From positions 33,634 through 57,633 of the forward strand of contig NZ_JHYG01000009.1 of NCBI RefSeq assembly GCF_000687875.1: a stretch of 24,000 bases of DNA, read 5' to 3'. The notes under the pieces were generated by a model, which was not told the DNA's origin, searched no databases, and saw nothing but the letters and a program-made list of their open reading frames with translations. The translations under genes and the position numbers were made by a program. The stretch is from Acidocella facilis ATCC 35904 (lineage in GTDB: Bacteria; Pseudomonadota; Alphaproteobacteria; Acetobacterales; Acetobacteraceae). Positions 798 through 22,230 of this stretch are shown piece by piece; position 1 is the first letter of the stretch, and every line of letters begins with the position of its first letter.

Positions 798-1355
798 ATG
801 GCTGAACCAACAGCGGATGCGCTTGCGGCGCATGGGACCGAGACCCGGCGCGACTTCCTGAGGCTTCTGGCCGTGGCGGGCGGCGCCATCGGGGTGGGGG
901 CGATCGCCTGGCCGCTGATCGAAGCGCTGAACCCGGACGCGGCGGGGCTGGAAGCGGCCCGGCCGGTGGTGCTGGTTTCCGATATTGCCGAAAATGCCAC
1001 CAAGACGGTGCAATGGGGCGGGCAGACCATCCTGATCCGCCGGCTGACCGACCAGCAGCTCGCCGCCGCCCAGATTGTGCCGATGAGCGCGCTGGTGGAC
1101 CCGCAGGAGGTCTCCGAACGGGTGGCGCCAGATGATGGGCATATCGTCGTGGTGATCGGCATGAATACCGGCGCGCCCTGCGCCTTGCAGGGGAGTGCGC
1201 CGGGCGATCCGCGTGGCGATTATGGCGGCTGGGTCAGCCCCTGCGATGGCAGCGAATATGACGCGCTGGGGCGGGTGCGGGCCGGGCCGGCGCCGCGAAA
1301 CCTGGCCATCCCGCGCTTTCGCTTCATCGATAAACACCAACTCCAGCTGGGTTAG
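798..1355 (+). CDS. petA: Rieske-fold ubiquinol-cytochrome c reductase iron-sulfur subunit homolog (PetA-like) lacking all four 2Fe-2S ligands
   Basis: The ATG at 798 is preceded by GGGAG 8 nt upstream. A Tat-like motif (TRRDFL) is followed by a TM helix. The C-terminus aligns colinearly to canonical PetA (GGWxxPCxGSxYDxxGRxRxGPAPRNLxIP). Box I reads NTGAPC instead of CTHLGC, and box II reads SPCDGS instead of CPCHGS. Confidence 0.8.
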   Translation: MAEPTADALAAHGTETRRDFLRLLAVAGGAIGVGAIAWPLIEALNPDAAGLEAARPVVLVSDIAENATKTVQWGGQTILIRRLTDQQLAAAQIVPMSALVDPQEVSERVAPDDGHIVVVIGMNTGAPCALQGSAPGDPRGDYGGWVSPCDGSEYDALGRVRAGPAPRNLAIPRFRFIDKHQLQLG

Positions 1356-1364
1356 GACGCGCCA

Positions 1365-2423
1365 ATGCAATCGGAGGCGAAACAGGGCGTTGCCTGCCCC
1401 TATCTGATCAAGGATCGCGCGCCGGGCGGGGCCTGGCATGCGACCTTGCCAACGCTGCTGGGGGCGCTGCTGGCGCTGCTGCTGGCCTCGGGCGCGGTGC
1501 TGGCGGTGTATTATAATCCGCGCGACGCCTATGGCGCGGTGCAGATGATCAATCGCGAGGTGAATGGCGGCTGGCTGGTGCTGGGCTACCATAATACCGG
1601 CGCGTCTTTGGCGTTTCTGGCGCTATATGCGCAGCTGTTCCGGCTGTTGCTGACCCGCGGCTACCGTGGCCCGGCGCGGTTTGCCTGGATGCTCTGGGTG
1701 AAGCTGCTGGCGGTGCTGCTGCTCTCCGGCTGGCTGGGCTTCGTGCTGCAGGGCGGGGCAGGGGGCGCGCTCTCGCTCACCCATGCCAGCGATGCCGCGC
1801 TGACCCTGCCGGGCTTTCCCGGCGCGGTGGCGCTGTGGATTTTCGGTGGCCCGTCCGGCCCCGGCACGTTGGCTCGGCTGCTGGTGTTCCATGTGCTGCT
1901 GGCGGCTTGCCCGGTTTGGGTGATCTGCTGGGCGCGCTGCGCGGCACGGCGGGCGCGGCCGGCGCCGGAGGGCCGGGCGGTGGCGTTCTGGCCGGTCTAT
2001 GCGTCGCAATATTTCGCGGCCTTGGCGGCGCTGGCGCTGTTCTTCACGCTGCTGCTGGCCTTCGCCCCGCATTGGGGGCAGAGCGCCCAGGCCATGCTGC
2101 CGGGCGATGTGCTGCCGATGGTAATCTCCTATCCCTGGTATTTGCAGCCGGTGGCGCATCTTGCCGGGCTGATCCCGGGCGATGGCGGGGCGATTTTGGT
2201 GGTGATTCTGGCTGCGGCCACGCTTTACGCGCTGCCCTGGCTAGATCGTTCCAACGGCGCCCCACCCGGCCGGCTCTATCGCGGGCTGACGCTGCTGCTG
2301 GGGCTGGATGTGCTGGCTCTGGGCTGGGCCAGCGCGCCGGTGCTGCAGATCATTTTCGGCATCTGGTTTTTCATCCATTTCCTCGTGCTCACCCCCCTCG
2401 TCACCGCCGCGGAGGCCAAATAA
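1365..2423 (+). CDS. petB: Cytochrome b homolog (PetB-like), short (352 aa) and divergent, with two of four heme His ligands substituted
   Basis: Recognisable cytochrome b blocks are present (REVNGGW, YHNTGASLAFLALY, LLVFHVLL, AFWPVY, PWY). It is polytopic and hydrophobic and sits between petA and petC. Its stop overlaps the petC start (TAATG). Confidence 0.75.
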   Translation: MQSEAKQGVACPYLIKDRAPGGAWHATLPTLLGALLALLLASGAVLAVYYNPRDAYGAVQMINREVNGGWLVLGYHNTGASLAFLALYAQLFRLLLTRGYRGPARFAWMLWVKLLAVLLLSGWLGFVLQGGAGGALSLTHASDAALTLPGFPGAVALWIFGGPSGPGTLARLLVFHVLLAACPVWVICWARCAARRARPAPEGRAVAFWPVYASQYFAALAALALFFTLLLAFAPHWGQSAQAMLPGDVLPMVISYPWYLQPVAHLAGLIPGDGGAILVVILAAATLYALPWLDRSNGAPPGRLYRGLTLLLGLDVLALGWASAPVLQIIFGIWFFIHFLVLTPLVTAAEAK

Positions 2424-3115
2424 TGCGCGTTTTGCTGATGTCGGGCTTAGCACTCGGGCTGCTGGCGGGTGGGGCGGCGCAGGCGCAGACCCCGTCTTTC
2501 CCCTCCTCCGGCGCCTTCGGGCATATCGATGATGAAGCCGCCCAGCGCGGGCTGGCGGTGTATCAGGGCGTGTGCGCCAGCTGCCACAGCCTCAACCAGC
2601 TACATTACCGGGATCTTGCGGGAATCGGGCTGGATACGGCGCAGATCGCCGGGCTTGCCAATGCGGTGAAGCTGGCCACCGGCCAGCCCGCCACCCCGGA
2701 TGATGTGTTCAAGGCCCCCGCGGCGATGAGCATGGGCGGGGCGGTGCCGCCGGATCTCTCCAGCATCGTCGCCCAGCGCCGCGATGGCACGCGCTATATT
2801 TACCGCTTCCTCACCGGCTTCGCCCCGGCCCCGGCCGGGGTGACGATGTTGCCAGGGCATTATTACAACCGCGCTTATCCGGGCGGGCAGGTTGCCATGC
2901 CGCCGGTGCTGCGGGACAATGCGGTGACTTACGCGGACGGGACCAAGGCCACACAGGCGCAGGAAGCCGCGGATGTCGCGGAGTTTCTGACATGGGCGTC
3001 CGATCCAAACCTCACCGCCCGGCATGTTCTGGGGATCAGGGCGGGGATCTTCTTCGCCTTCCTGACGCTGGTGGCGCTGGCGACCAAAAGGCGGATCTGG
3101 AAGCAGGAGGGCTGA
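2423..3115 (+). CDS. petC: Cytochrome c1 (PetC), apparently intact
   Basis: The ATG at 2423 overlaps the petB stop. Signal peptide MRVLLMSGLALGLLAGGAAQA is present. The heme motif CASCH lies at 2573-2587. PPDLS, YIY, AMPP (Met ligand) and VTYADGTKAT..DV.EFL.WA..P blocks are conserved, and there is a C-terminal TM anchor. Confidence 0.85.
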   Translation: MRVLLMSGLALGLLAGGAAQAQTPSFPSSGAFGHIDDEAAQRGLAVYQGVCASCHSLNQLHYRDLAGIGLDTAQIAGLANAVKLATGQPATPDDVFKAPAAMSMGGAVPPDLSSIVAQRRDGTRYIYRFLTGFAPAPAGVTMLPGHYYNRAYPGGQVAMPPVLRDNAVTYADGTKATQAQEAADVAEFLTWASDPNLTARHVLGIRAGIFFAFLTLVALATKRRIWKQEG

Positions 3116-3669
3116 GCGGCGTCGCGGCTTCGGCGCGGGCCTGCCGCGTCTGCCATGACATCTTGCCGCTGGGGGCGCGGCCGGTGTTCCGGGTCTCGCC
3201 CACCGCGAAGCTGCTGGTGATCTCGCAGGCGCCGGGCACCAAGGTGCATGCCAGCGGCCTGCCGTTCGACGATGCCTCCGGCGATCGGCTGCGGCATTGG
3301 ATGGGGATTGGCCGGGAGGTTTTCTACGATGAAACCCGGCTGAATTTCATGCCAATGGGCTTCTGCTATCCCGGCCGGCTGCGCAATGGCGGCGATGCCC
3401 CGCCGCGCCCGGAATGCGCGCCGCTCTGGCATGAGGCGCTGTTGCGCCATCTGCCGCAGCTTGAGCTGATCCTGCTGGTCGGCGGCTATGCGCAAAGGCG
3501 CTATCTGGGCAAGGGCAGCATGACGCAGAGGGTGCGCGCGCAGGCGCCGGGGCGGTTTCTGCCGCTGCCGCACCCCTCCTGGCGGACCACCGGGTGGGAG
3601 AAGAAAAACCCTTGGTTTGGTGAGGAGATTTTGCCGAAATTGCGGGCGGAGGTGGCGCGGCTGACGTGA
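2992..3669 (+). CDS. Uracil-DNA glycosylase superfamily protein (start uncertain)
   Basis: Motifs ISQAPG (motif A-like) and HPSWRT (motif B-like) are present, with a CRVC near the N-terminus. The only in-frame ATG (2992) overlaps petC by 124 nt. A CTG at 3112 overlaps the petC stop (CTGA). A TTG at 3163 is a further option. Confidence 0.6.
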   Translation: MGVRSKPHRPACSGDQGGDLLRLPDAGGAGDQKADLEAGGLSGVAASARACRVCHDILPLGARPVFRVSPTAKLLVISQAPGTKVHASGLPFDDASGDRLRHWMGIGREVFYDETRLNFMPMGFCYPGRLRNGGDAPPRPECAPLWHEALLRHLPQLELILLVGGYAQRRYLGKGSMTQRVRAQAPGRFLPLPHPSWRTTGWEKKNPWFGEEILPKLRAEVARLT

Positions 3670-3750
3670 TCGTCATCATCGCGCCGGGTTGAATTTTCGC
3701 CGGGCTGCCCAAGCTGTTGCAACATAGATGTTACAGCGAAGGAGGCGCGG

Positions 3751-4440
3751 ATGGTTCCGGCCTGGCTCAATGATCTGGCGATGCTGTCCCTGGCCGCCGC
3801 GTTCATCAGTGCGCTGATTATTTTGTGGGATCTGCGTGCCCGCCCGCAGGCGATGGCGGTGATGAACCCGGTCTGGCCGGTCACCGCCTTATATTTCGGG
3901 CCGCTCGGGCTCTGGGCCTATTGGCGGCTGGGGCACGCGGCGCCGGCATCGCATCACGCGCATAATCACCATCATCATCACGGCGATGACAAACCGTTCT
4001 GGGTGCAGGTCTTCGCCGGCACCACCCATTGCGGGGCGGGCTGCACGCTGGGCGATATTGTCGCGGAATTTCTGGTGTTTTTCTCAGGGCTGGCGATCGC
4101 CGGCTCGGTGTTCGCGGGGCAACTGGTGCTGGATTATGCCTTCGCCTTCCTGCTCGGCATCGTCTTTCAATATTATTCCATCGTGCCGATGCGCGGGCTG
4201 CAGCCGGCCGAGGGCATCAAGGCGGCGGTGAAGGCGGATTTCTGGTCGCTCACCGCCTTCGAGGTCGGGCTGTTCGCCTGGATGGCGCTCACCCGCTTCG
4301 TGTTTTTCGGCCCCAGCCTGCAGCCGGACAGCGCCACCTACTGGTTCATGATGCAGATCGGCATGATCATCGGCTTCGCCACGGCGTTTCCGATGAACTG
4401 GCTGCTGATCAAATCCGGGGTGAAGGAGCCCTGCATGTAG
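3751..4440 (+). CDS. DUF4396-like integral membrane protein with a His-rich loop
   Basis: AGGAGG lies upstream of the ATG at 3751. The protein has multiple TM helices, the motif THCGAGCTLGD, and the loop HHAHNHHHHHGDD. Confidence 0.7.
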   Translation: MVPAWLNDLAMLSLAAAFISALIILWDLRARPQAMAVMNPVWPVTALYFGPLGLWAYWRLGHAAPASHHAHNHHHHHGDDKPFWVQVFAGTTHCGAGCTLGDIVAEFLVFFSGLAIAGSVFAGQLVLDYAFAFLLGIVFQYYSIVPMRGLQPAEGIKAAVKADFWSLTAFEVGLFAWMALTRFVFFGPSLQPDSATYWFMMQIGMIIGFATAFPMNWLLIKSGVKEPCM

Positions 4441-4447
4441 GCGCGTG

Positions 4448-4553
4448 TTAGAGCAATATGTGTTTAGGTTGACGCGCCAGCGTCAAGAAAAACACATGAA
4501 ATTGCTCGCTAAAACAAAACTTAGAGCATCAAGCTAAAAGCTTGATGCTCTAG
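4448..4553 (-). mobile_element. MITE-like TA-flanked dual-hairpin repeat, copy 1 (strand given as the orientation in which the terminator hairpin comes first)
   Basis: It is 103/106 identical to the reverse complement of 13605-13710. It has a perfect 14-bp stem (4522-4535 / 4539-4552, loop AAA), followed on the minus strand by GTTTTGTTTT. It also has a long imperfect hairpin at 4451-4507 with apex TTGACGC-GCCA-GCGTCAA. The GAGCA..TGCTC termini are flanked by TA on both sides. Confidence 0.8.
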
Positions 4554-5227
4554 CCGCGCAGCTCTTTCAGTGATTTGATCGCATTGCCCTGCGCATCGAA
4601 ATTCGCCTCATCCAGCCAGGCGAGAATCGCATCGCGCTGTTGCGGCCATTCATGCCCGAGCATCGCATACATCGCGGTGTCGCGCTCGCGCCCCTTCACC
4701 ACCATATGCGCGCGCAGCGTGCCCTCATAGGAAAAGCCCAGGCGCAGCGCGGCACGTTTGGAAGGCTCGTTGAGCGCGTTGCATTTCCAGACCAGCCGGC
4801 GATAGCCGAGATCCTCCGCCGCGTGGCGCAGCATCAGGAACATCGCCTCGGTCGCGGCACGGGTGCGGCGCAGCTCCGGGCCCAACCAGATATTGCCGAG
4901 CTCGATGGCGGCATTCTTTGGCTCGATATTCATCAGCGACAGAAAGCCGGAGACACGGCCGATGGTGGTCGGCCGCACCGCCCAGAAGGCGGCCAGCGGG
5001 TCGGCGTAAAAGCCGGCAATCAGCGCTTCCACCTCGGCCACACTCTTCCACGGGCCGAAGGACATATAGGTGAAACTGTCCTCGGCGAATTGCGAGGCCT
5101 CGAACAGTTCCAGCGCATGGCGGCGGGTGAGTGGCTCCAGGCTGACGCGCGCGCCCAGAAATTTCTGCCGGGCGGGCAGCGGGCGCGGCCAGGTATCGAC
5201 CTCGGGGCCGAGGGGAAGCTTGGTCAT
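4550..5227 (-). CDS. GNAT family N-acetyltransferase (RimJ/RimL-like)
   Basis: The 225-aa ORF shows a GNAT core pattern (IELGNIWLGPELRRTRAATEAMFLMLRHAAEDLGYRRLVWKCNALNEPSKRAALRLGFSYEG). It lies 3 nt downstream of hldE on the same strand. Confidence 0.75.
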   Translation of the reverse strand: MTKLPLGPEVDTWPRPLPARQKFLGARVSLEPLTRRHALELFEASQFAEDSFTYMSFGPWKSVAEVEALIAGFYADPLAAFWAVRPTTIGRVSGFLSLMNIEPKNAAIELGNIWLGPELRRTRAATEAMFLMLRHAAEDLGYRRLVWKCNALNEPSKRAALRLGFSYEGTLRAHMVVKGRERDTAMYAMLGHEWPQQRDAILAWLDEANFDAQGNAIKSLKELRG

Positions 5228-5230
5228 GGC

Positions 5231-6706
5231 TCAGCCCCTCAGCCGGGCGAGGGTGGCGGTGGTGGAATGGCCGGGCAGCAGCTGGGCCAGCGCTACACTG
5301 CCGCCCCAGCTCTCCACCAGATCCGCGCCGACGACGGTTTCGCGGGTATAATCCGCGCCCTTGATCAGCACGTCCGGCTTGATCAGCTTGATCAGCTCGA
5401 TCGGGGTATCTTCCTCGAACAGACAGACCAGATCGACCGAGGCGAGCGAGGCTAGCACGGCGGCGCGGGCCGCCTCGCCCTGGGCCGGGCGGGTCGGGCC
5501 TTTCAGGCGCTGCACCGAGGCATCGGCATTGATGCCGACGATCAGCCGGTCGCACATCGCCCGGCATTGCTCCAGCAGATGCACATGGCCCGGATGCAGC
5601 AGATCAAAACAGCCATTGGTAAAGCCGACCTTATAGCCGCGCAGGCGCCAGCGCTCGGCCATCTCGGCGGCGGCGGACGGGGTGACGATTTTCTGCAGCG
5701 CCCCGGTGGCGGGGGCGATATGGGCGAGAAGATCCGCCGGGCGGGCGACAGCGGTGCCGACCTTGGCGACGACGATGCCGCCGGCGATATTGGCCAGCCT
5801 TGCAGCCTCCACCAGCGGCACCTCGGCGGCGATGCAGGCGGCCAGGGCCGCCACCACCGTATCCCCGGCGCCGGAGACGTCGTAGACTTCCCGCGCCTCG
5901 CCGGGGAAATGATGCACCTCCTCGGCGGTGATCAGGCTCATCCCGTCCTCGGAGCGCGTCACCAGCACCGCGCCGAAGCCATACCAGGCGAGCAGCGCCT
6001 TGGCGGCGGTGACGATCTGCGCCTCGCTCTCCACCGGCATGTTGGTGGCCTCGGCCAGTTCCTTGCGGTTGGGGGTGAGGATGTCCGCGCCCTTATAACG
6101 GGCATAGTCGCGGCCCTTGGGGTCGACGATGATCTTGCGCCCGAGTTTTTGCGCGCCTTCGATCAGGGCGGCGCAGACCGGGGCGCTGAGCACACCTTTA
6201 TTATAGTCCGAGAGCACGGTGACAGTCGTGGCCGCCATCGCATCCAGGGCGATCTTCAGCAGCCGCTCGCAGAGCTTCTCCGGCAGGGCGATGCGCTCCT
6301 CGCGGTCGGCGCGGATCAGATGCTGGCCTTGCGCGATATAGCGGGTCTTCATCGTCGTGGTGCGGCCATTCTGCACCAGCAGCCAGGGTTCCACGCGCTC
6401 CTGCCCGCCGATCAGCCCGGTCAGGTCCGAGCCGGCCTGGTCATCGCCGACGACCGAGACGAAGGCCGCCGAGGCGTCGAGCGCGATCAAATTGCGCACC
6501 ACATTCCCAGCCCCGCCCGGCATCGCCACCTCGCGGGTGACGGTGAGGATGGGCACCGGCGCTTCCGGGCTCACCCGGGTCACTTCGCCATAGGTGTAAC
6601 GGTCGAGCATCGCGTCGCCCACCACGAGCACGCTGGCGCGGGCGAGTTTCTTCACATAGGCGCCGAGGTCGGCGCAGGAGGGGGCGGCAGAGGAGTCGTT
6701 GGCCAT
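5231..6706 (-). CDS. hldE: Bifunctional D-glycero-beta-D-manno-heptose-7-phosphate kinase / heptose-1-phosphate adenylyltransferase
   Basis: The 491-aa protein has an N-terminal ribokinase-like domain (GGAGNV, GAGDT). The C-terminal cytidylyltransferase domain carries the motif FTNGCFDLLHPGH. Confidence 0.9.
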   Translation of the reverse strand: MANDSSAAPSCADLGAYVKKLARASVLVVGDAMLDRYTYGEVTRVSPEAPVPILTVTREVAMPGGAGNVVRNLIALDASAAFVSVVGDDQAGSDLTGLIGGQERVEPWLLVQNGRTTTMKTRYIAQGQHLIRADREERIALPEKLCERLLKIALDAMAATTVTVLSDYNKGVLSAPVCAALIEGAQKLGRKIIVDPKGRDYARYKGADILTPNRKELAEATNMPVESEAQIVTAAKALLAWYGFGAVLVTRSEDGMSLITAEEVHHFPGEAREVYDVSGAGDTVVAALAACIAAEVPLVEAARLANIAGGIVVAKVGTAVARPADLLAHIAPATGALQKIVTPSAAAEMAERWRLRGYKVGFTNGCFDLLHPGHVHLLEQCRAMCDRLIVGINADASVQRLKGPTRPAQGEAARAAVLASLASVDLVCLFEEDTPIELIKLIKPDVLIKGADYTRETVVGADLVESWGGSVALAQLLPGHSTTATLARLRG

Positions 6707-8939: not shown

Positions 8940-9209
8940 ATGGCCAATATCGCATCTGCCCAGAAACGCATCCGCCAGACGCTGAAGCGCACGGCGCGCA
9001 ACAAGGCGCGCAAGTCCCGCGTCCACACCTTCATCCGCAAGGTTGAAGAGGCCGTGGCGGCTGGCGACAAGGCAGCCGCGCAGGCTGCGTTGATCGCTGC
9101 CCAGCCGGAGCTACAGCGCGCGGCTGGCAAGGGCGTGCTGAAGGCGAATGCGGTTGCCCGCAAGATCTCCCGCCTGTCAGCCAGCGTGAAGGCCGTCGCC
9201 GCCGCTTAA
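8940..9209 (+). CDS. rpsT: 30S ribosomal protein S20
   Basis: [38 protein letters not shown]... is a canonical bS20 N-terminus. The protein is 89 aa. Confidence 0.95.
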
Positions 9210-9260
9210 TGCGCCGGTTGGGATAATCCTCCGGGTTGTCCCAAAAAATATACGTTTTTG

Positions 9261-9308
9261 AACCGCCGTCATCTTGTTGTAATGGCAAGATACGGCGGTT
9301 TTCTATTC
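9261..9308 (+). terminator. Rho-independent terminator of rpsT
   Basis: AACCGCCGTCATCTTG / CAAGATACGGCGGTT forms a stem with one bulge and is followed by TTTTCTATTC. Confidence 0.7.
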
Positions 9309-9650
9309 TTGGTTGCAAGCCCAGGCTTTTGCTATGGCAAGTAGGTAGGCGCAAAGAAAGTTTTTTATTTGTAGTCTTTTGAATTTAAACGTTTTTTTCG
9401 AAGTGTCAGCAGCTTGTTCGCAAAGCTGTCGCATTTGTCGGCTTGCTTCGGCGAGGCGTTTAGACCTAATGTCCAAGCCTCAATTGACTGTTCAGGACTG
9501 TCTCATTTCTGAGAAGGCGCCCTTTTCCCAAGGGTTTGCTTTGCGGAATCGGTCCTTTGCGGCGCTGTGTTCGGGGTTAGGCAAAGCAGAATGGGTATCA
9601 ACCTAGAGATCAATTCCTCTGGTCAGGGCGGCGCTGCGCTGCAAACCTCC
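9309..9650 (+). promoter_or_regulatory. Low-GC dnaA upstream/leader region with an AT-rich tract
   Basis: By direct count, 9361-9400 is about 20% GC and 9361-9420 is 30% GC, against a high-GC background. Direct repeats are present: GACTGT x2 (9486-9501) and CTTTGCGG x2 (9539-9562). Confidence 0.4.
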
Positions 9651-11036
9651 ATGATATGGAATGAAGAGGCACGGCTGGCTGAGCAATGGGGCCGCGTGCG
9701 CGCCCGGCTGCAGGCGGAAGTGGGTGAGGTCGAATATCGCACCTGGCTGAAGCAGGTGAGCTTTGGCGGTGTTGCCGGCGACGAGGCGGTGGTGCTGCTG
9801 CCGACCCGCTTTCTGCGCGACTGGGTGAACAAGGAATATGGCGAGCTGATCGCCTCCTTCTGGCAGGCTGAGAATCCGGGCGTGAAGCGGGTTGAGTTCC
9901 GCACTGGCGCGCCCTCCGCGCGTCCGGCCGCGCCGGATCTGGCCGAGCCGGCCGCGCGGCCGGTGGCCGGGCAGGCGGCGATGCCGGCGCCGCGCCAGGA
10001 GAACATGGCCGGGCTGGACCAGCGTTTTACCTTCGAGACCTTCGTCGTCGGCAAGCCGAACGAGTTCGCCTATGCCTGCGCGCGGCGGGTGGCCGAGAGC
10101 CCGGCGACGCCGGGCTTCAACCCGCTGTTCCTTTATGGCGGTGTCGGGCTGGGCAAGACCCATCTGATGCACGCCATCGCCTGGGAGCTGTCCACCAATG
10201 CGCGCGGCGGGCGGCCGGTCTCGGTGGCCTATATGTCCGCCGAGCGCTTCATGTACCGCTTCATCAACGCGCTGCGCTCGCAATCCACGCTGGAATTCAA
10301 GAACGAGCTGCGGTCCGTCGACGTGCTGATGATCGACGATCTGCAGTTCCTGATCGGCAAGGACAACACCCAGGAAGAATTCTTCCACACCTTCAACGCG
10401 CTGGTGGATGCGGGCAAGCAGATCGTCATCTCCGCCGACAAATCCCCCTCCGACCTCTCGGGGCTGGAGGACCGGCTGCGTACCCGCCTGGGCTGCGGCA
10501 TCGTCGCGGATCTGCACGCCACCACATTCGAGCTGCGCTATTCCATTCTGGAGGCCAAGGCGCAGCGCGCCGGGGTGGAGGTGCCGCCGAAGGTGGTGGA
10601 ATTCCTCGCCCGCAAGATCACCAGCAATAACCGTGAGCTGGAAGGCGCGCTGAACCGCCTCGTCGCGCATGCCAATCTGTTCAACCGGCAGGTGACGCTG
10701 GATACCGCGCATGAGGTGCTGCACGATGTGCTGAAGGCGCATGACCGCAAGATCTCCATCCAGGAAATCCAGAAGCGCGTCTGCGAGCATTATAATATCC
10801 GCATCGCCGAGATGAGCTCCGCCCGGCGGGCGCGCAACATCGCCCGGCCGCGCCAGGTGGCAATGTACCTGGCCAAGCAGCTGACCTCGAAGAGCCTGCC
10901 CGATATCGGCCGGCATTTCGGCGACCGCGACCATACCACCGTCATGCATGCGGTCTCGCGGGTGACCGAGCTGATCGGCCAGGATGCCGCTTTCGCCGAG
11001 GATGTCGAGCTGCTCAAGCGCATGCTGGAGAACTGA
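9651..11036 (+). CDS. dnaA: Chromosomal replication initiator protein DnaA
   Basis: Walker A GGVGLGKTHL, the box VII region, and the C-terminal DNA-binding helix (RPRQVAMYLAKQLTSKSLPDIGRHFGDRDHTTVMHA) are present. The start at ATG 9651 was chosen by N-terminal similarity (WGRVRARLQAEVGE..Y.TWL). GTG 9567 and ATG 9591 are alternatives. Confidence 0.92.
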   Translation: MIWNEEARLAEQWGRVRARLQAEVGEVEYRTWLKQVSFGGVAGDEAVVLLPTRFLRDWVNKEYGELIASFWQAENPGVKRVEFRTGAPSARPAAPDLAEPAARPVAGQAAMPAPRQENMAGLDQRFTFETFVVGKPNEFAYACARRVAESPATPGFNPLFLYGGVGLGKTHLMHAIAWELSTNARGGRPVSVAYMSAERFMYRFINALRSQSTLEFKNELRSVDVLMIDDLQFLIGKDNTQEEFFHTFNALVDAGKQIVISADKSPSDLSGLEDRLRTRLGCGIVADLHATTFELRYSILEAKAQRAGVEVPPKVVEFLARKITSNNRELEGALNRLVAHANLFNRQVTLDTAHEVLHDVLKAHDRKISIQEIQKRVCEHYNIRIAEMSSARRARNIARPRQVAMYLAKQLTSKSLPDIGRHFGDRDHTTVMHAVSRVTELIGQDAAFAEDVELLKRMLEN

Positions 11037-11058: not shown

Positions 11059-11088
11059 AAAGGGGCCCGCGGGGCCCCTTTTCTTTGG
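11059..11088 (+). terminator. Rho-independent (potentially bidirectional) terminator after dnaA
   Basis: A perfect 10-bp stem (AAAGGGGCCC-GCG-GGGCCCCTTT) is followed by TCTTT, with an A-run on the 5' side. Confidence 0.75.
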
Positions 11089-11186
11089 CCGAATCCCTGG
11101 CTTTGCAAGCCCCTGGTCAGCTTGCTACTCTAAGGCCCGAATCGCGCCGCAAACCAAGTGATTCGATCGCAGTCTGGAAGGGTATC

Positions 11187-12314
11187 ATGAAGTTCAAGGC
11201 CGATCGCGCCACGCTGATGAAGTCGCTCGCTCACGTGCAGAACGTGGTGGAGAAGCGCAATACCATTCCCATTCTCGCCAACGTGCTGCTCTCGGTGCAG
11301 AATGGCCGGCTTTCCATCGCCGCGACCGATCTGGAGATCGCGCTGGTGGAAGAGGTGGCGGCGGAGACGCTGCGCGACGGCGCCATCACCGTGCCGGCGG
11401 CGACCTTGTATGAGATTGTCCGCCGCCAGCCGGAGAATGCGGTGATCGAGCTCGATCATCCGGGCGGGGACGCGCCGCTGGCGCTGCGCGCCGGGCGCTA
11501 TTCCACCAGCCTGGTGGCGCTCTCGGTCGAGGAATTCCCGAAGCTCGATGCCGGCAAGCTCTCGCACAGCTTCGTGCTCTCGGCGATCGAGCTGCGCGGG
11601 CTGATCGACCGCACCCGCTTTGCCATCTCCACCGAGGAGACGCGCTATTATCTCAACGGCATCTATCTGCACGCCGCCGAGGGCCAGGACGGCCCGGTGA
11701 TCCGCGCGGTGGCGACGGACGGGCATCGTCTGGCGCGCGTTGAGGAGCCGCTCCCGAGCGGGGCGGCTGGTATGCCCGGCATCATCGTGCCGCGCAAGAC
11801 CGTGACCGAGCTGCGCAAGCTGCTGGATGAGGCGAGCGGCGAGGTGGAGGTGGCGCTTTCCGAGACGCGCATCCAGTTCACCATCGGCACCATGCGCCTG
11901 ACCAGCAAGCTGATCGATGGCACCTTCCCGGATTATGACCGCGTGATCCCGCGGGGGAATGACAAGATCCTGCGGGTGGACAAGAAGGATTTCAACGATG
12001 CGGTCGGCCGCGTCTCGGCGATTTCGGCGGAGAAGCACCGGCCGGTGAAGCTCTCGCTGGCGAAGGAGCTGCTGGTGATCTCGGCGGCCTCCGCCGAGCA
12101 GGGCTCGGCCTCCGAGGAGCTAGGCGGGGATCTGGTGGATTACCAGTCCGGGCCGTTGGAAATCGGCTTCCAGGCGCGCTATCTCTCGGATGTCACCGAC
12201 CAGATCAAGTCCGGCAAGGTGGAATTCGCCTTCGCTGACGGCGCCGCGCCGACGCTGGTGCGTGAGGAGAATGACAGCTCGGCGGTTTATGTTTTGATGC
12301 CGATGCGGGTGTGA
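11187..12314 (+). CDS. dnaN: DNA polymerase III beta sliding clamp
   Basis: MKFKADRATLMKSLAHVQNVVEKRNTIPILANVLL is a typical DnaN N-terminus. GGAAGG lies upstream of the ATG at 11187. The protein is 375 aa. Confidence 0.92.
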   Translation: MKFKADRATLMKSLAHVQNVVEKRNTIPILANVLLSVQNGRLSIAATDLEIALVEEVAAETLRDGAITVPAATLYEIVRRQPENAVIELDHPGGDAPLALRAGRYSTSLVALSVEEFPKLDAGKLSHSFVLSAIELRGLIDRTRFAISTEETRYYLNGIYLHAAEGQDGPVIRAVATDGHRLARVEEPLPSGAAGMPGIIVPRKTVTELRKLLDEASGEVEVALSETRIQFTIGTMRLTSKLIDGTFPDYDRVIPRGNDKILRVDKKDFNDAVGRVSAISAEKHRPVKLSLAKELLVISAASAEQGSASEELGGDLVDYQSGPLEIGFQARYLSDVTDQIKSGKVEFAFADGAAPTLVREENDSSAVYVLMPMRV

Positions 12315-12524: not shown

Positions 12525-13637
12525 TTGCTATCCCGCCTGACGCTCACCGATTTCCGCTCCTACGCCACGCTGCGCTTTGAGGCGCCGGCGCGGCGCCTGG
12601 TGTTCACCGGCCCGAACGGCGCGGGCAAGACCAATCTGCTGGAAGCGGCCTCGCTGCTGGTCCCTGGGCGCGGCCTGCGCGGGGCAAAATTCGCCGAGCT
12701 GGCGCGCCAGGGCGGCGCCGGGGGCTGGGCGGTGGCCGCACAGTTTTCCAACGGGCTGGAGATCGGCACCGGGGCGGTGGAAGGGGCGCCGGAGCGGCGG
12801 GAATTCCGCCTCAACGGGGTGAAGCCCCGGGCGCAATCGGATGTCGCGGAGCAGCTCGCCGCTGTCTGGCTGACCCCACAGATGGACCGGCTGTTCACGG
12901 ATACCGCCTCCGGCCGACGTAAATTCCTGGATCGCCTGGTGATCGCGCTGGAGCCGTTCCATGCGCGCGAGATCGCGGCCTTCGAGAGTGCCTCCGCCCA
13001 GCGCAACCGGCTGCTGGCCGAGCCGCGTTACGACCCTGCCTGGGTGGCGGGGCTGGAGGATGCGATGGCCCGCCATGCCGTCGCCGCCACGGCGGCCCGG
13101 CTGGGGCTGATCGCGCGGCTGAATGCGAGCCTGGAGGCGGGCGCGGCGGACCCGTTTCCGCGGGTGACACTGGGGTTGGCCTGCCCGATCGCGCAGCTTC
13201 TGGACGCGGCTGCGGCGCTGGATGTGGAAGACTGGCTGCGCGGCGCGCTGGCGGCCTCGCGCGCCACCGATGCGGCGGTGAAATCCTCAGGCTACGGCCC
13301 GCAGAAGGCCGATCTGCTGATTGCCGATGCCCAGGCCGGCCGCCCCGCCGCGCTCTCCTCCACCGGCCAGCAGAAGGCGATGCTGATCGGCATCGTGCTC
13401 GGCCATGTCGCTTTGATTACCGCGCTGCGGGGCGCCCCGCCGCTGCTGCTGCTGGATGAGCCGCTGGTGCATCTGGATGCGCAGCGGCGCGGCGCCTTGT
13501 TCGCTGCCCTGGCCCGGATGGACGCGCCGGCCTGGCTGACCGGCACGGATCAGGAGCTGTTCGCGGGGCTGGACGCCGCGCGTCTGGCCGTGCGCGAGAG
13601 CCTCTTAGAGCATCAAGCTTTTCGCTTGAGGCTCTAA
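12525..13637 (+). CDS. recF: DNA replication and repair protein RecF
   Basis: TTG start. LTLTDFRSY, Walker A GPNGAGKTNLLEA, the signature STGQQKA and Walker B LLLLDEP are present. The last 10 codons and the stop lie inside repeat copy 2. Confidence 0.9.
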   Translation: MLSRLTLTDFRSYATLRFEAPARRLVFTGPNGAGKTNLLEAASLLVPGRGLRGAKFAELARQGGAGGWAVAAQFSNGLEIGTGAVEGAPERREFRLNGVKPRAQSDVAEQLAAVWLTPQMDRLFTDTASGRRKFLDRLVIALEPFHAREIAAFESASAQRNRLLAEPRYDPAWVAGLEDAMARHAVAATAARLGLIARLNASLEAGAADPFPRVTLGLACPIAQLLDAAAALDVEDWLRGALAASRATDAAVKSSGYGPQKADLLIADAQAGRPAALSSTGQQKAMLIGIVLGHVALITALRGAPPLLLLDEPLVHLDAQRRGALFAALARMDAPAWLTGTDQELFAGLDAARLAVRESLLEHQAFRLRL

Positions 13638-19387: not shown

Positions 19388-19455
19388 TTTTTATTGATTT
19401 GATTAACCTGTCGTTTTAAATCTGATTCCGGAATAATCGCGCGGAGAAGCGTTTG

Positions 19456-22230
19456 ATGTCCGGCTTGACGCAAGGCGGCCCGATCTTGCTGGGAACGGCA
19501 ACCCCCGCCTCGTTGAGCCTGGCGAGCGGACTTTCCCTCACCTTGGCCGGCCAGGCGGCAACAGACAGCCCGGCGCTGGTCAGCGGGCTTTATGGCGATC
19601 AATCCTCGAACTGGACCATCGCGACCAGCGCCACGCTGGTCGCGGAGCTGACGCTGGCCAGCGGCGCGGCTGTCGGGGTGGGGCTCGAACTGGCCGGGGC
19701 CGGCACCATTGATAATGCTCTGGGTGGGACGCTGTCCGGCAATCTGGAAGGGGTGGTGCTGGCTTCGGGCGGGATCCTGGTCAGCCAGGGGCTTATCGAA
19801 GGGGGCGTTGCGGGCGGGGTAGGCTTGCAGCGGATCGGCGTGCGCATGGCCAGCGGCGCGCTGGAGAACGACGCGACCGGGACGATCACTGGTGGCGCCT
19901 ATGGTGTCAGCCTCGGCGGAGGTGGTGTGGTCAGCAATGCGGGCAGCATTTCCGGCGGGTTGGCGGGGATGGTGCTGGGTGCCAGCGGGCTGTTGGAAAA
20001 TCAGGCAGGCGGGGTGGTGCAAGGCGGGCTGGCCGGGCTGGTGCTGGGCGGCGGCGCCAGCCTGGTCAATCAGGGCGAGGTCCAGGCCACGAGCATCGCC
20101 GCCGGGCATGACGGGGTGATTTTGAGCGCCGGCGCCTATCTCGGCAATGCGGGGGTCATTGCGGGGTTCGATGCGGCTTATGCCGGGGCGGGTCCGGTGC
20201 GGCTGAATAATGGCGGCACCATGCTGGGCGGCGGGAGCATCGCGCTGGCCTTCCCGGCGAGCGGCTATGGCTTCACCACCGGTGCCGCGGTGGCGCTGGC
20301 GGCGGGGCAGGTCCAGAATACCGGGCTGATTGAGGGCGCCAGCGCGCCGTCCGGTTCCGTCTTGCGGCAGGGCACGGCGGGAGCCGGCATGGTGCTCGGC
20401 GCTGGCACATTGGTGAATGGCGGCGTGATTGCCGGAGGCGGCGGAGGCTCTGCCGGGTTCGGCGGCGTTGGCCTGTCCGGCGGGGCGGGGCTGGTTGCCA
20501 GCAATGATGGCACGCTGCTGGGCGGTGGCGGCTTCTATGGCGGGGCCGCGGCGATGCTGGCCGGCGCCACCTTGGTCAATCGCGGTTCGATCGCCGGCGG
20601 CAGCGGGACGCAGACCGGCGGCAACGGTGTGGTGCTGATGAACGATGCCCTGCTGGTGAATGCGGGCAGCATCCAGGGCGGGGCCGGGACGCGCTATGGC
20701 TGGGGCGAAGGGCTGGGGGCGGGGGTGGCGCTCTATACCGGCACGGTGCTCAATCAGGGGCTGCTCTCGGGCGGCGGCGGCGCCTTTATCGGGCTCTGGA
20801 TGGGCGGGGGCAGCGTGCAGAATATCGGCACCATCCTCGGCCATGCGGCGCTGGCGATGCAGGGGGGCAGCTTCACCAATGGCGGGCTGGTCGAGGGCGC
20901 GGCGGTGGCGCTGGACCTGGCCGGGGGGGCTTTCACCAATGCCGGCACGCTCGCCGGCAGCTTCGCCGCCTATATCAGCGAAGCCAGCCCCAGCCTCACC
21001 GTCGCCCCGGGCGGCGTGTTCGAGGGGAGGGTGACGGCCGTGAGCGGCGGCGGCACGCTGCTGCTCTCCGGCAGCCATGGCACATTGGATATGGGGGCAA
21101 GCTTTTCCGGCTTTTCCGAGATCTCCTTCGCCGGCACGGGCTGGATGCTGGCCGGGGCGGTGGCCGAGCTTGCCGGCGGCCAGACCCTCGCCGGGTTCGG
21201 TGCGGGGGATGTTCTGCGCCTGGACGGGGTGAGTGCCAGCAGCGCCAGCCTCGTCGCCGGGACCGGGCTGGTGCTGAGCGGGGCCAGCGGGACGGAAACC
21301 ATCGCCCTGGCCGGTTTCGATCAGGCCGGGCCGGTGACGCTCAGCCAGACCGCAGGCGGTGCCGAGATCGTCATCTGCTACCGGCGCGGGACCATGATCC
21401 AGACCGTGGAGGGCGAGCGCGATGTCGTGTCGCTGCGCATTGGCGATGTGCTGCCGACGCGCTTTGGCGGCCGCCAGCCGATTCGCTGGATCGGCCGCCA
21501 GCGTTTCGGGCCGGAGGCGCTGCGCGGCCAGCGCGCGCGCTGGCCGGTTTGTATCCAGAAGGGCGCGCTCGGCATGGGCCTGCCGCGGCGCGATCTGTTC
21601 GTCTCCCCGGGCCATTCCCTGCTGCTGGGCGGGGTGCTGGTGTTGGCGGAGGCGCTGGTCAACGGCGTCACCATCACCCAGCCAGAGCCGGCAGAGGCGG
21701 TTGAGTATGTCCTGCCGGAGTTTGAGCGTCATGATTGCCTGCTGGCGGAAAGCGTCTGGGCCGAGAGCTTTGCCGACGGGCCGGACCTGCGCGCGCAGTT
21801 TGACAATGGCGCGGCGTTTCTGGCGGCCCATCCGGGCTGGCAGGCGCCGTCCGCGCTCAGCTTGTGCGCCCCGCGCTTCCTCGCCGGCCCCCGCCTGGCC
21901 GCCGCGCTGCGCCCGTTTCTGCCGCCGCCGCCGGGCTTCGGGGCGCTGCGTGGCTGTATCGACATTGCCGATGGGCGCATGGTCTCCGGCTGGGCGCAGG
22001 ATATCGCCTCACCGCTCTGGCCGCAGATGCTGGAGATCTATGCCGGACGAACCAGGCTGGGCACGGTGCTGGCCTGCGACCATCGGCCGGATCTCGAACA
22101 AGCCGGCATCGGCATCGGCCGCGCCGGTTTCAGCTTCAGGGCGCCGCGCCGTTACAACCCGGCGCGGTTGCGCATTTCCCGTGTGGGGGACGGCGCTTCG
22201 CTCCCCGTTCCGGTGCGCCGCGCCGCCTGA
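19456..22230 (+). CDS. Large Gly-rich beta-helix repeat protein with a C-terminal Hint (Hedgehog/intein-like, Hint_2-type) domain
   Basis: GGAGA lies 8 nt upstream of the ATG at 19456, and a TTG at 19453 is also in frame. About 640 aa consist of degenerate ~20-25-aa repeats (G..L.N.G.I.GG..G..L). The Hint block then begins at the Cys codon 21376-21378: CYRRGTMIQTVEGERDVVSLRIGDVLPT..GGRQPIRWIGRQ...GALGMGLPRRDLFVSPGHSLLL. Confidence 0.8.
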   Translation: MSGLTQGGPILLGTATPASLSLASGLSLTLAGQAATDSPALVSGLYGDQSSNWTIATSATLVAELTLASGAAVGVGLELAGAGTIDNALGGTLSGNLEGVVLASGGILVSQGLIEGGVAGGVGLQRIGVRMASGALENDATGTITGGAYGVSLGGGGVVSNAGSISGGLAGMVLGASGLLENQAGGVVQGGLAGLVLGGGASLVNQGEVQATSIAAGHDGVILSAGAYLGNAGVIAGFDAAYAGAGPVRLNNGGTMLGGGSIALAFPASGYGFTTGAAVALAAGQVQNTGLIEGASAPSGSVLRQGTAGAGMVLGAGTLVNGGVIAGGGGGSAGFGGVGLSGGAGLVASNDGTLLGGGGFYGGAAAMLAGATLVNRGSIAGGSGTQTGGNGVVLMNDALLVNAGSIQGGAGTRYGWGEGLGAGVALYTGTVLNQGLLSGGGGAFIGLWMGGGSVQNIGTILGHAALAMQGGSFTNGGLVEGAAVALDLAGGAFTNAGTLAGSFAAYISEASPSLTVAPGGVFEGRVTAVSGGGTLLLSGSHGTLDMGASFSGFSEISFAGTGWMLAGAVAELAGGQTLAGFGAGDVLRLDGVSASSASLVAGTGLVLSGASGTETIALAGFDQAGPVTLSQTAGGAEIVICYRRGTMIQTVEGERDVVSLRIGDVLPTRFGGRQPIRWIGRQRFGPEALRGQRARWPVCIQKGALGMGLPRRDLFVSPGHSLLLGGVLVLAEALVNGVTITQPEPAEAVEYVLPEFERHDCLLAESVWAESFADGPDLRAQFDNGAAFLAAHPGWQAPSALSLCAPRFLAGPRLAAALRPFLPPPPGFGALRGCIDIADGRMVSGWAQDIASPLWPQMLEIYAGRTRLGTVLACDHRPDLEQAGIGIGRAGFSFRAPRRYNPARLRISRVGDGASLPVPVRRAA

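Follow-up and report, generated by a model that had tools for sequence, protein, structure and literature searches.

A petB-like gene of Acidocella facilis with haem bL ligands but no haem bH ligands, probably retained in a deranged bc1 complex as a scaffold for cytochrome c1

The window analysed here is a stretch of 24,000 nucleotides (nt) from Acidocella facilis ATCC 35904 (contig NZ_JHYG01000009.1, positions 33,634 to 57,633 of the forward strand), and the subject of this report is a petABC-like operon near its left end, which encodes a Rieske-like protein, a cytochrome b-like protein and a cytochrome c1. The three genes are tightly packed: the petA-like gene, with a maximal open reading frame (ORF) at 705–1355, has its stop 9 nt upstream of the ATG of the b-like gene, and the b-like and petC genes share one base, the TAA of the former running into the ATG of the latter (TAATG). 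Family counts given below refer to a set of 42 sequences, namely that of the window and those of 41 related loci (L001–L041), taken from a locus scan with one genome per species in which the best 80 of 463 loci, canonical loci included, were retained. The features of the operon, numbered from the first letter of the window, are as follows.

798–1355, plus strand: petA-like gene, Rieske-fold protein without 2Fe-2S ligands, 185 amino acids (aa) from the likely start ATG 798, which is preceded by GGGAG
843–860, plus strand: twin-arginine motif TRRDFL of the Rieske-like protein
1164–1181, plus strand: box I of the Rieske-like protein, NTGAPC (canonical CTHLGC)
1236–1253, plus strand: box II of the Rieske-like protein, SPCDGS (canonical CPCHGS)
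1365–2423, plus strand: petB-like gene, 352 aa, a polytopic, uninterrupted eight-helix cytochrome b homologue, middle gene of the operon
1590–1592, plus strand: His76 in helix B, haem bL ligand (bovine H83), retained; His in 42/42 family sequences
1632–1634, plus strand: Gln90 in helix B, at a haem bH ligand position (bovine H97); in the family Leu (17), His (11), Tyr (9) and others
1746–1775, plus strand: LQGGAGGALS, replacing the cd1 block LPWGQMSFWG of the Qo site (by alignment)
1890–1892, plus strand: His176 in helix D, haem bL ligand (bovine H182, yeast H183), retained; His in 41/42
1932–1934, plus strand: Ala190 in helix D, at a haem bH ligand position (bovine H196, yeast H197); in the family Ala (13), Leu (12), His (7) and others
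2130–2141, plus strand: YPWY, replacing PEWY; in the family Glu to Pro in 42/42, Trp in 42/42, Tyr in 39/42
2423–3115, plus strand: petC, intact cytochrome c1, 230 aa (Pfam Cytochrom_C1, 200 bits)
2573–2587, plus strand: CASCH of cytochrome c1
2747–2761, plus strand: PPDLS of cytochrome c1
2894–2911, plus strand: AMPPVL of cytochrome c1, containing the Met ligand

The ORF at 1365–2423 is a real gene and not a chance reading frame, because a protein search recovered at least 75 close homologues of 314–387 aa with 42–94% identity, after which the score dropped from 197 to 55 bits. When the ORF was re-read, all strings, residues and codons quoted in a first-pass annotation of this gene proved correct (helix B reads YH76NTGASLAFLALYAQ90LFR and helix D reads VFH176VLLAACPVWVICWA190R), and the description of the protein as polytopic and uninterrupted agrees with a 352-aa frame of eight helices. 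Alignment to Pfam profiles, which that annotation had suggested as a check, gave 64 bits for Cytochrome_B (cut-off 27) and 21.9 bits for Cytochrom_B_C (cut-off 20.7). Against solved structures, phmmer gave a full-length alignment of the protein to bc1-complex cytochrome b (E = 1e-25 to 1e-13), placing YHNTGASLAFLALYAQLFR opposite MHANGASMFFIVVYLHIFR, FHVLLAACPVWVICWAR opposite LHYLLPFILVGASLLHL, and QGGAGGAL opposite the canonical PWGQMSFW, the last of these also in comparison with 37 canonical alphaproteobacterial sequences. An AlphaFold model built with 28 family sequences contained the expected helices (predicted local distance difference test, pLDDT, 80; predicted template modelling score, pTM, 0.82), and a Foldseek search with it returned only cytochrome b chains of bc1 complexes, at template modelling (TM) scores of 0.73–0.80. 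Since the model matches only bc1 cytochrome b, the eight-helix cytochrome b fold is predicted to be kept. The protein had also been described as 80–100 aa shorter than typical alphaproteobacterial cytochrome b; it is indeed shorter, but the deficit is about 50–90 aa relative to the canonical ORFs of the fetched loci, which mostly have about 400–440 aa. The missing length falls mainly on the N-terminus, the de loop (Qi region) and the C-terminus, and the window protein carries an 11-residue N-terminal deletion compared with most of the family.

In cytochrome b, helices B and D share one orientation, both crossing the membrane from P side to N side, and therefore the first His of each helix ligates haem bL and the second His of each ligates haem bH; in the bovine protein these are H83 and H182 for bL, and H97 and H196 for bH. 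In alignments to the solved chains and to the 37 canonical alphaproteobacterial sequences, Q90 and A190 stand where helices B and D have their second conserved His, and of the four canonical His the window protein retains H76 and H176. Both bL ligands are therefore kept and both bH ligands lost. The packing glycines follow the same division, if we take bovine G48 and G130 to pack on bL, and G34 and G116 on bH, as presumed from established bc1 structures: the equivalent of G48 is Gly in 41/41 sequences and that of G130 in 42/42, whereas that of G34 is Pro in 40/42 and that of G116 is variable. No family member (0/42) has His at both bH positions, and the bL site is among the 40 family-invariant columns of the b-like protein. 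Among all His of the window protein (residues 25, 76, 140, 176, 236, 265 and 338) we looked for substitute haem ligands and found none in helix B or D beyond His76 and His176; the family does not conserve H25 or H140, while H236 in the ef loop and H338 in helix H are invariant.

The first-pass annotation was right that the protein is a cytochrome b homologue in which the PEWY Glu, the PWGQMSFWG block and half of the four canonical His are missing, as both phmmer and the family alignment confirm, but its conclusion that each b haem is left with one axial ligand does not follow, as both missing His belong to bH and the bL site is complete. A cytochrome b holding two five-coordinate haems, one His each, would take its support from the fact that one of the missing His lies in helix B and the other in helix D. 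We give this reading next to no credence: ligands pair first with first and second with second, as in yeast, where H183 binds bL and H197 binds bH (PMC4033779; the same assignment is given in the legend of Fig. S1B of PMC10715153); the Qi loop is gone as well, as are the glycines packing on bH, while the bL markers are invariant; and the remaining His (25, 140, 236, 265 and 338) are either unconserved in the family or outside helices B and D. A single-haem b-like protein is plausible, because the yeast bH-ligand mutant Cytb-H197F still contains one haem, in the bL site (PMC4033779).

Both quinone-binding sites are altered. At the Qo site, the window has QGGAGGALS where the cd1 motif PWGQMSFWG would be expected, and YPWY in place of PEWY or its variants PDWY and PVWY, with P257 at the position of the PEWY Glu in the alignments to solved chains and to the 37 canonical sequences. 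At the Qi site, the de-loop signature H..GSNNP...D with its N-terminal W/N is absent: the loop is shortened, Trp is replaced by Ala, and across the family the His position is held by Arg or Lys, and the Asp position by Arg, Lys or Asn.

The neighbouring Rieske-like protein, on which the first-pass annotation was silent, as it was on the intact cytochrome c1 and on the published Acidocella pattern, scores 119 bits with TIGR01416, and 16 bits, under the cut-off, with the Pfam Rieske profile. Profile alignment with hmmalign and hhalign against 28 canonical Rieske proteins gave, in bovine numbering, C139 to N, H141 to G, C158 to S and H161 to D, with C144 and C160 kept, so that the four cluster-ligand positions read N, G, S and D and the disulfide Cys pair is preserved. 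Instead of CxH...CxxH, the two boxes read NTGAPC and SPCDGS, and a five-residue insertion follows box I. In a single-sequence phmmer alignment the box I Cys fell on the ligand Cys; this placement was dropped, as MAFFT, hmmalign and hhalign all assign it to the disulfide Cys, in agreement with PMC10715153, and both His ligands are absent under either alignment. Throughout the family, box II contains PCDGS (42/42) and box I has the form N-T-x-x-P-C. The protein retains its twin-arginine translocation (Tat) signal-anchor, the motif being kept in 41/42 sequences. Cytochrome c1, in turn, keeps CxxCH, PPDLS and the Met ligand in all family loci that cover them.

A cofactor-depleted bc1 complex of this kind in Acidocella has already been published: Degli Esposti et al. 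(2023, Microbiol Spectr 11:e00575-23, PMC10715153) described a "deranged" bc1 complex in acidophilic Acetobacteraceae. According to these authors, cytochrome b of Acidocella and Acidiphilium lacks the bH His ligands, and the iron-sulfur protein of Acidocella has lost three to four cluster ligands and kept the disulfide pair, with an intact c1 (PMC10715153). The window shares the loss of bH ligands, the ligand-poor iron-sulfur protein with its Cys pair, the intact c1 and the placement in the clade, and the ORF at 1365–2423 is almost certainly the PetB subunit of this Acidocella-type complex. The two have the same genus-level clade, the same petABC order and the same pattern across b, Rieske and c1 without essential difference. 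The window adds a further Acidocella species, in which the loss is complete: Gln and Ala stand where bH would be ligated, and none of the four Rieske ligand positions keeps its residue. The bc1 remnant of the sister acidophilic genus Acidiphilium likewise has a cytochrome b without both bH histidines (PMC10715153), but reportedly no gene for the iron-sulfur protein, whereas the window family keeps a Rieske-like gene under constraint. Compared with canonical alphaproteobacterial PetB (Rhodobacter capsulatus 1ZRT, R. sphaeroides, Paracoccus), the window protein shares the eight-helix fold (TM-score about 0.75), the bL ligands, PWY, the LPWLDRS block and the operon context, but it is only 25–30% identical, has neither bH ligands nor a Qi loop, is altered in cd1 and PEWY, and is 50–90 aa shorter. 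In laboratory mutants of bH ligands (yeast Cytb-H197F, PMC4033779; a chloroplast b6 mutant cited in PMC10715153) bH is disabled in a similar way, and bL of the yeast protein still binds haem, but, unlike these, the window variant has persisted throughout a whole clade, alongside partner subunits that co-evolved with it. A looser parallel is the Acetobacter COX1-like protein without metal ligands (cited in PMC10715153), a retained and presumably structural respiratory subunit of an unrelated family and complex. Beyond the publication, the present analysis adds a corrected haem assignment for this gene, the 42-sequence census of bL and bH positions, evidence from substitution rates and the reversed order of subunit conservation described below.

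The 41 related loci all belong to Acidocella, or to metagenome-assembled genomes (MAGs) of Acetobacteraceae or unclassified proteobacteria, and include A. aminolytica, A. aromatica, A. aquatica and strain KAb 2-4. The best match to the window b-like protein (94%) is in the uncultured Acidocella MAG CAMIIE01, and identity to A. aminolytica is 62%. The order Rieske-like, b-like, c1 is the same in 41/41 loci wherever the contig covers the genes, down to 42% identity. The first-pass annotation had also proposed asking whether the variant forms a clade of its own, and it does: in a neighbour-joining tree of Kimura distances the family was monophyletic in 40/40 bootstraps, on a stem that is the longest internal branch (0.63 substitutions per site, against a median of 0.04).

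Several loci of the scan deserve separate mention. L033 (JAMFRY010000083.1) is the sole family member with Leu in place of the bL ligand His176 (FFLVVL), and represents either a sequencing error or a member without any haem site. In L060 (CAVTSC010000001.1, MFD09495.bin.2.33, about 3525–5685) the Rieske-like and b-like proteins align partly and drift out of frame, with c1 intact, which reflects either a pseudogenised operon or indel errors of a long-read assembly. L003 and L016, both from MAG DATJXU01 (Acidocella sp. SMAG_U15134), are two different family-type operons, with 68% and 53% identity to the window protein, and are either paralogues or the product of a mixed bin. L038 (JAMFSE010000149.1) is an Acidocella-type operon in a MAG labelled Rhodovastum atsumiense; this bin is probably mislabelled, since the literature gives Rhodovastum a functional bc1. 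Among the canonical loci, those of Acetobacter pomorum, A. estunensis and A. pasteurianus (L067, L074, L077, L079) have the order petB-petC-petA on the same strand, with a Rieske gene encoding a normal CPCHGS directly 3' of petC and a cytochrome b that has four His and PEWY.

Ratios of nonsynonymous to synonymous substitution rates (dN/dS) were calculated by the Nei-Gojobori method on the regions of high-scoring segment pairs (HSPs), for 14 close family pairs and for canonical pairs, among them pairs of Acetobacter, Sneathiella and Rickettsiales loci; of 8 canonical pairs computed, 5–7 were usable for each gene. Median values were 0.22 for the b-like gene against 0.03 for canonical petB, 0.14 for the Rieske-like gene against 0.03 for petA, and 0.16 for the c1 gene against 0.08 for petC. 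The operon is under purifying selection, which is relaxed several-fold for the two cofactor-depleted subunits. One pair, L022 versus L034, lies far from all others in the Rieske-like gene (dN/dS 1.75, dN 1.65), probably through a frame or HSP problem in one of the assemblies.

These values bear directly on whether the operon is simply an unused set of decaying pseudogenes heading for loss. Catalytic residues are gone from two of the three subunits, dN/dS is about 4–7 times that of canonical petA and petB, and the related MAG locus L060 is apparently frameshifted, all of which would be expected of decay. Against this, the three ORFs are intact and in order in 41 loci (where covered) even at 42% identity, dN/dS of 0.1–0.3 is far under 1, the b-like protein has its 40 invariant columns including the bL site, the Tat motif persists in nearly all members, and the predicted fold is confident. 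Because selection is purifying and the 41 loci are intact, the genes are not pseudogenes, and we consider decay of the operon highly improbable.

The pattern of conservation has also been rearranged. Within the family, median identity is highest for c1 (62.6%), followed by the Rieske-like protein (58.5%) and the b-like protein (51.6%), which is the reverse of the order among canonical alphaproteobacteria (b 63.2%, Rieske 56.0%, c1 46.8%). Measured as the mean fraction of the top residue, the least conserved segments of the b-like family are the helix D N-side half (0.44, against 0.65 in canonical sequences), the de loop of the Qi site (0.50 against 0.82), the ef loop (0.62 against 0.82) and the cd loop (0.66 against 0.80). 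The most conserved are helices C, E and H, and helices E (0.74 against 0.68), G (0.67 against 0.56) and H (0.74 against 0.63) are conserved to a degree equal to or above that in canonical proteins. By these measures, constraint has shifted from the catalytic sites to the membrane scaffold and c1.

Taken as a whole, the gene is probably the PetB of a deranged Acidocella bc1 complex that has been kept as a scaffold for c1. Without a Rieske cluster there would be no acceptor for the first quinol electron at Qo, and without bH or a Qi site no outlet for the second. Because both the cluster and bH with its Qi site are missing, neither a Q cycle nor a linear reaction from quinol to c1 should take place; in the earlier study, too, bH mutations were always found paired with mutations of the iron-sulfur protein, which was taken to exclude even linear quinol oxidation (PMC10715153). 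The b-like core, probably with a single haem, and the Rieske-like subunit would then assemble and anchor cytochrome c1, which would act as a membrane-bound c-type relay passing electrons from periplasmic donors to cytochrome oxidase. According to a published proposal, c-type cytochromes may instead receive electrons via Cyc2 and Cyc1 (PMC10715153). Other respiratory complexes, Complex I for one, may likewise gain stability from the scaffold, a role put forward earlier as a reason for the persistence of the deranged complex (PMC10715153, citing Stroh et al., 2004). That the complex is a redox-dead membrane scaffold holding cytochrome c1 is the function towards which we lean, with somewhat less assurance than towards the explanation as a whole.

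Some points weigh against this interpretation. The scaffold role is inferred, both here and in the literature, and a search of published work for expression and biochemical studies of the Acidocella bc1 complex returned only comparative-genomics papers and no experiment on haem content, assembly or activity. The dN/dS estimates are simple Nei-Gojobori values in high-GC genes and their absolute size is rough, while the contrasts with c1 and with the canonical pairs are internal. A second petABC was assessed from the best 80 of 463 loci. Finally, several replacements are fixed rather than variable, namely PEWY Glu to Pro, Rieske box II His to Asp and, in helix A, G34 to Pro, and His236 and His338 are invariant; fixed replacements could mean a new function rather than mere structural retention.

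The third of these points leaves some room for a divergent paralogue beside a normal petABC elsewhere in the genome, in which case an ordinary complex III would be present. The two family-type loci in MAG DATJXU01 indicate that duplication, or mixing of bins, does occur. We nevertheless judge this to be very unlikely, as Acidocella is absent from the canonical loci among the best 80 of 463, PMC10715153 speaks for Acidocella of "a non-functional yet present bc1 complex", and its Table S2, in a text copy that has lost the colour coding, has no multi-copy PetB in the Acidocella rows.

The last point invites the idea of a repurposed redox enzyme, a single-haem b/c1 complex with a new electron-transfer reaction, in which either c1 is reduced by a periplasmic donor at the altered Rieske-like head or a Qo-type quinol reaction proceeds via bL only. 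It could account for the fixed replacements (Rieske H161 to Asp in 42/42, with the PEWY and G34 changes at the frequencies given above) and for a bL site and c1 that are fully conserved; moreover, Acidocella species retain cytochrome c oxidase and need a route for the reduction of c-type cytochromes (PMC10715153). On the other hand, no metal or cofactor motif replaces the Rieske cluster, the C158 position being Cys, Ser or Ala, and both Qo loops rank with the less conserved segments of the b-like family. The distance between bL and c1 in bc1 structures is too great for electrons to pass directly from one to the other. On balance a repurposed enzyme of this kind is unlikely. A related suggestion, that the complex is no inert scaffold and that the invariant replacements, together with the invariant His236 and His338, have created a new binding or redox function in a machine of one b haem and one c1 haem, for example a docking site where periplasmic electrons, such as those of Fe(II)-oxidising cytochromes, enter on their way via c1 to the oxidase in acidophiles, seems to us doubtful to a similar or slightly greater extent.

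The operon is a natural example of a complex III of which two out of three catalytic subunits have been depleted of cofactors while all its genes were kept over long evolution. It bears on the non-catalytic roles of respiratory complexes, such as assembly, stabilisation of supercomplexes and anchoring of c1, and on how acidophilic Acetobacteraceae with a cytochrome oxidase reduce their c-type cytochromes.

On the minus strand, divergent from the pet-like operon, an open frame at 1 to about 700 runs off the left end of the window; by eye only, we take it to encode a HemF-like oxygen-dependent coproporphyrinogen III oxidase of haem biosynthesis. Directly 3' of petC are a gene of the uracil-DNA glycosylase superfamily and a gene for a DUF4396 membrane protein (3751–4440 and 2992–3669, both on the plus strand), the DUF4396 protein containing the His-rich stretch HHAHNHHHHHGDD. 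Further downstream, dnaA (9567–11036), dnaN (11085–12314) and recF (12525–13637) follow one another on the plus strand, with a dip in GC content to 0.60 at 9001–10000, just upstream of them. Because of this row of genes and the drop in GC, the origin of chromosome replication is probably located here, about 6.5 kb away from the operon. GC content (0.72) and GC skew (up to 0.19) reach their highest values of the window in the region that holds a 925-aa ORF at 19453–22230 (plus strand), whose sole Pfam match is Hint_2 (residues 641–776).

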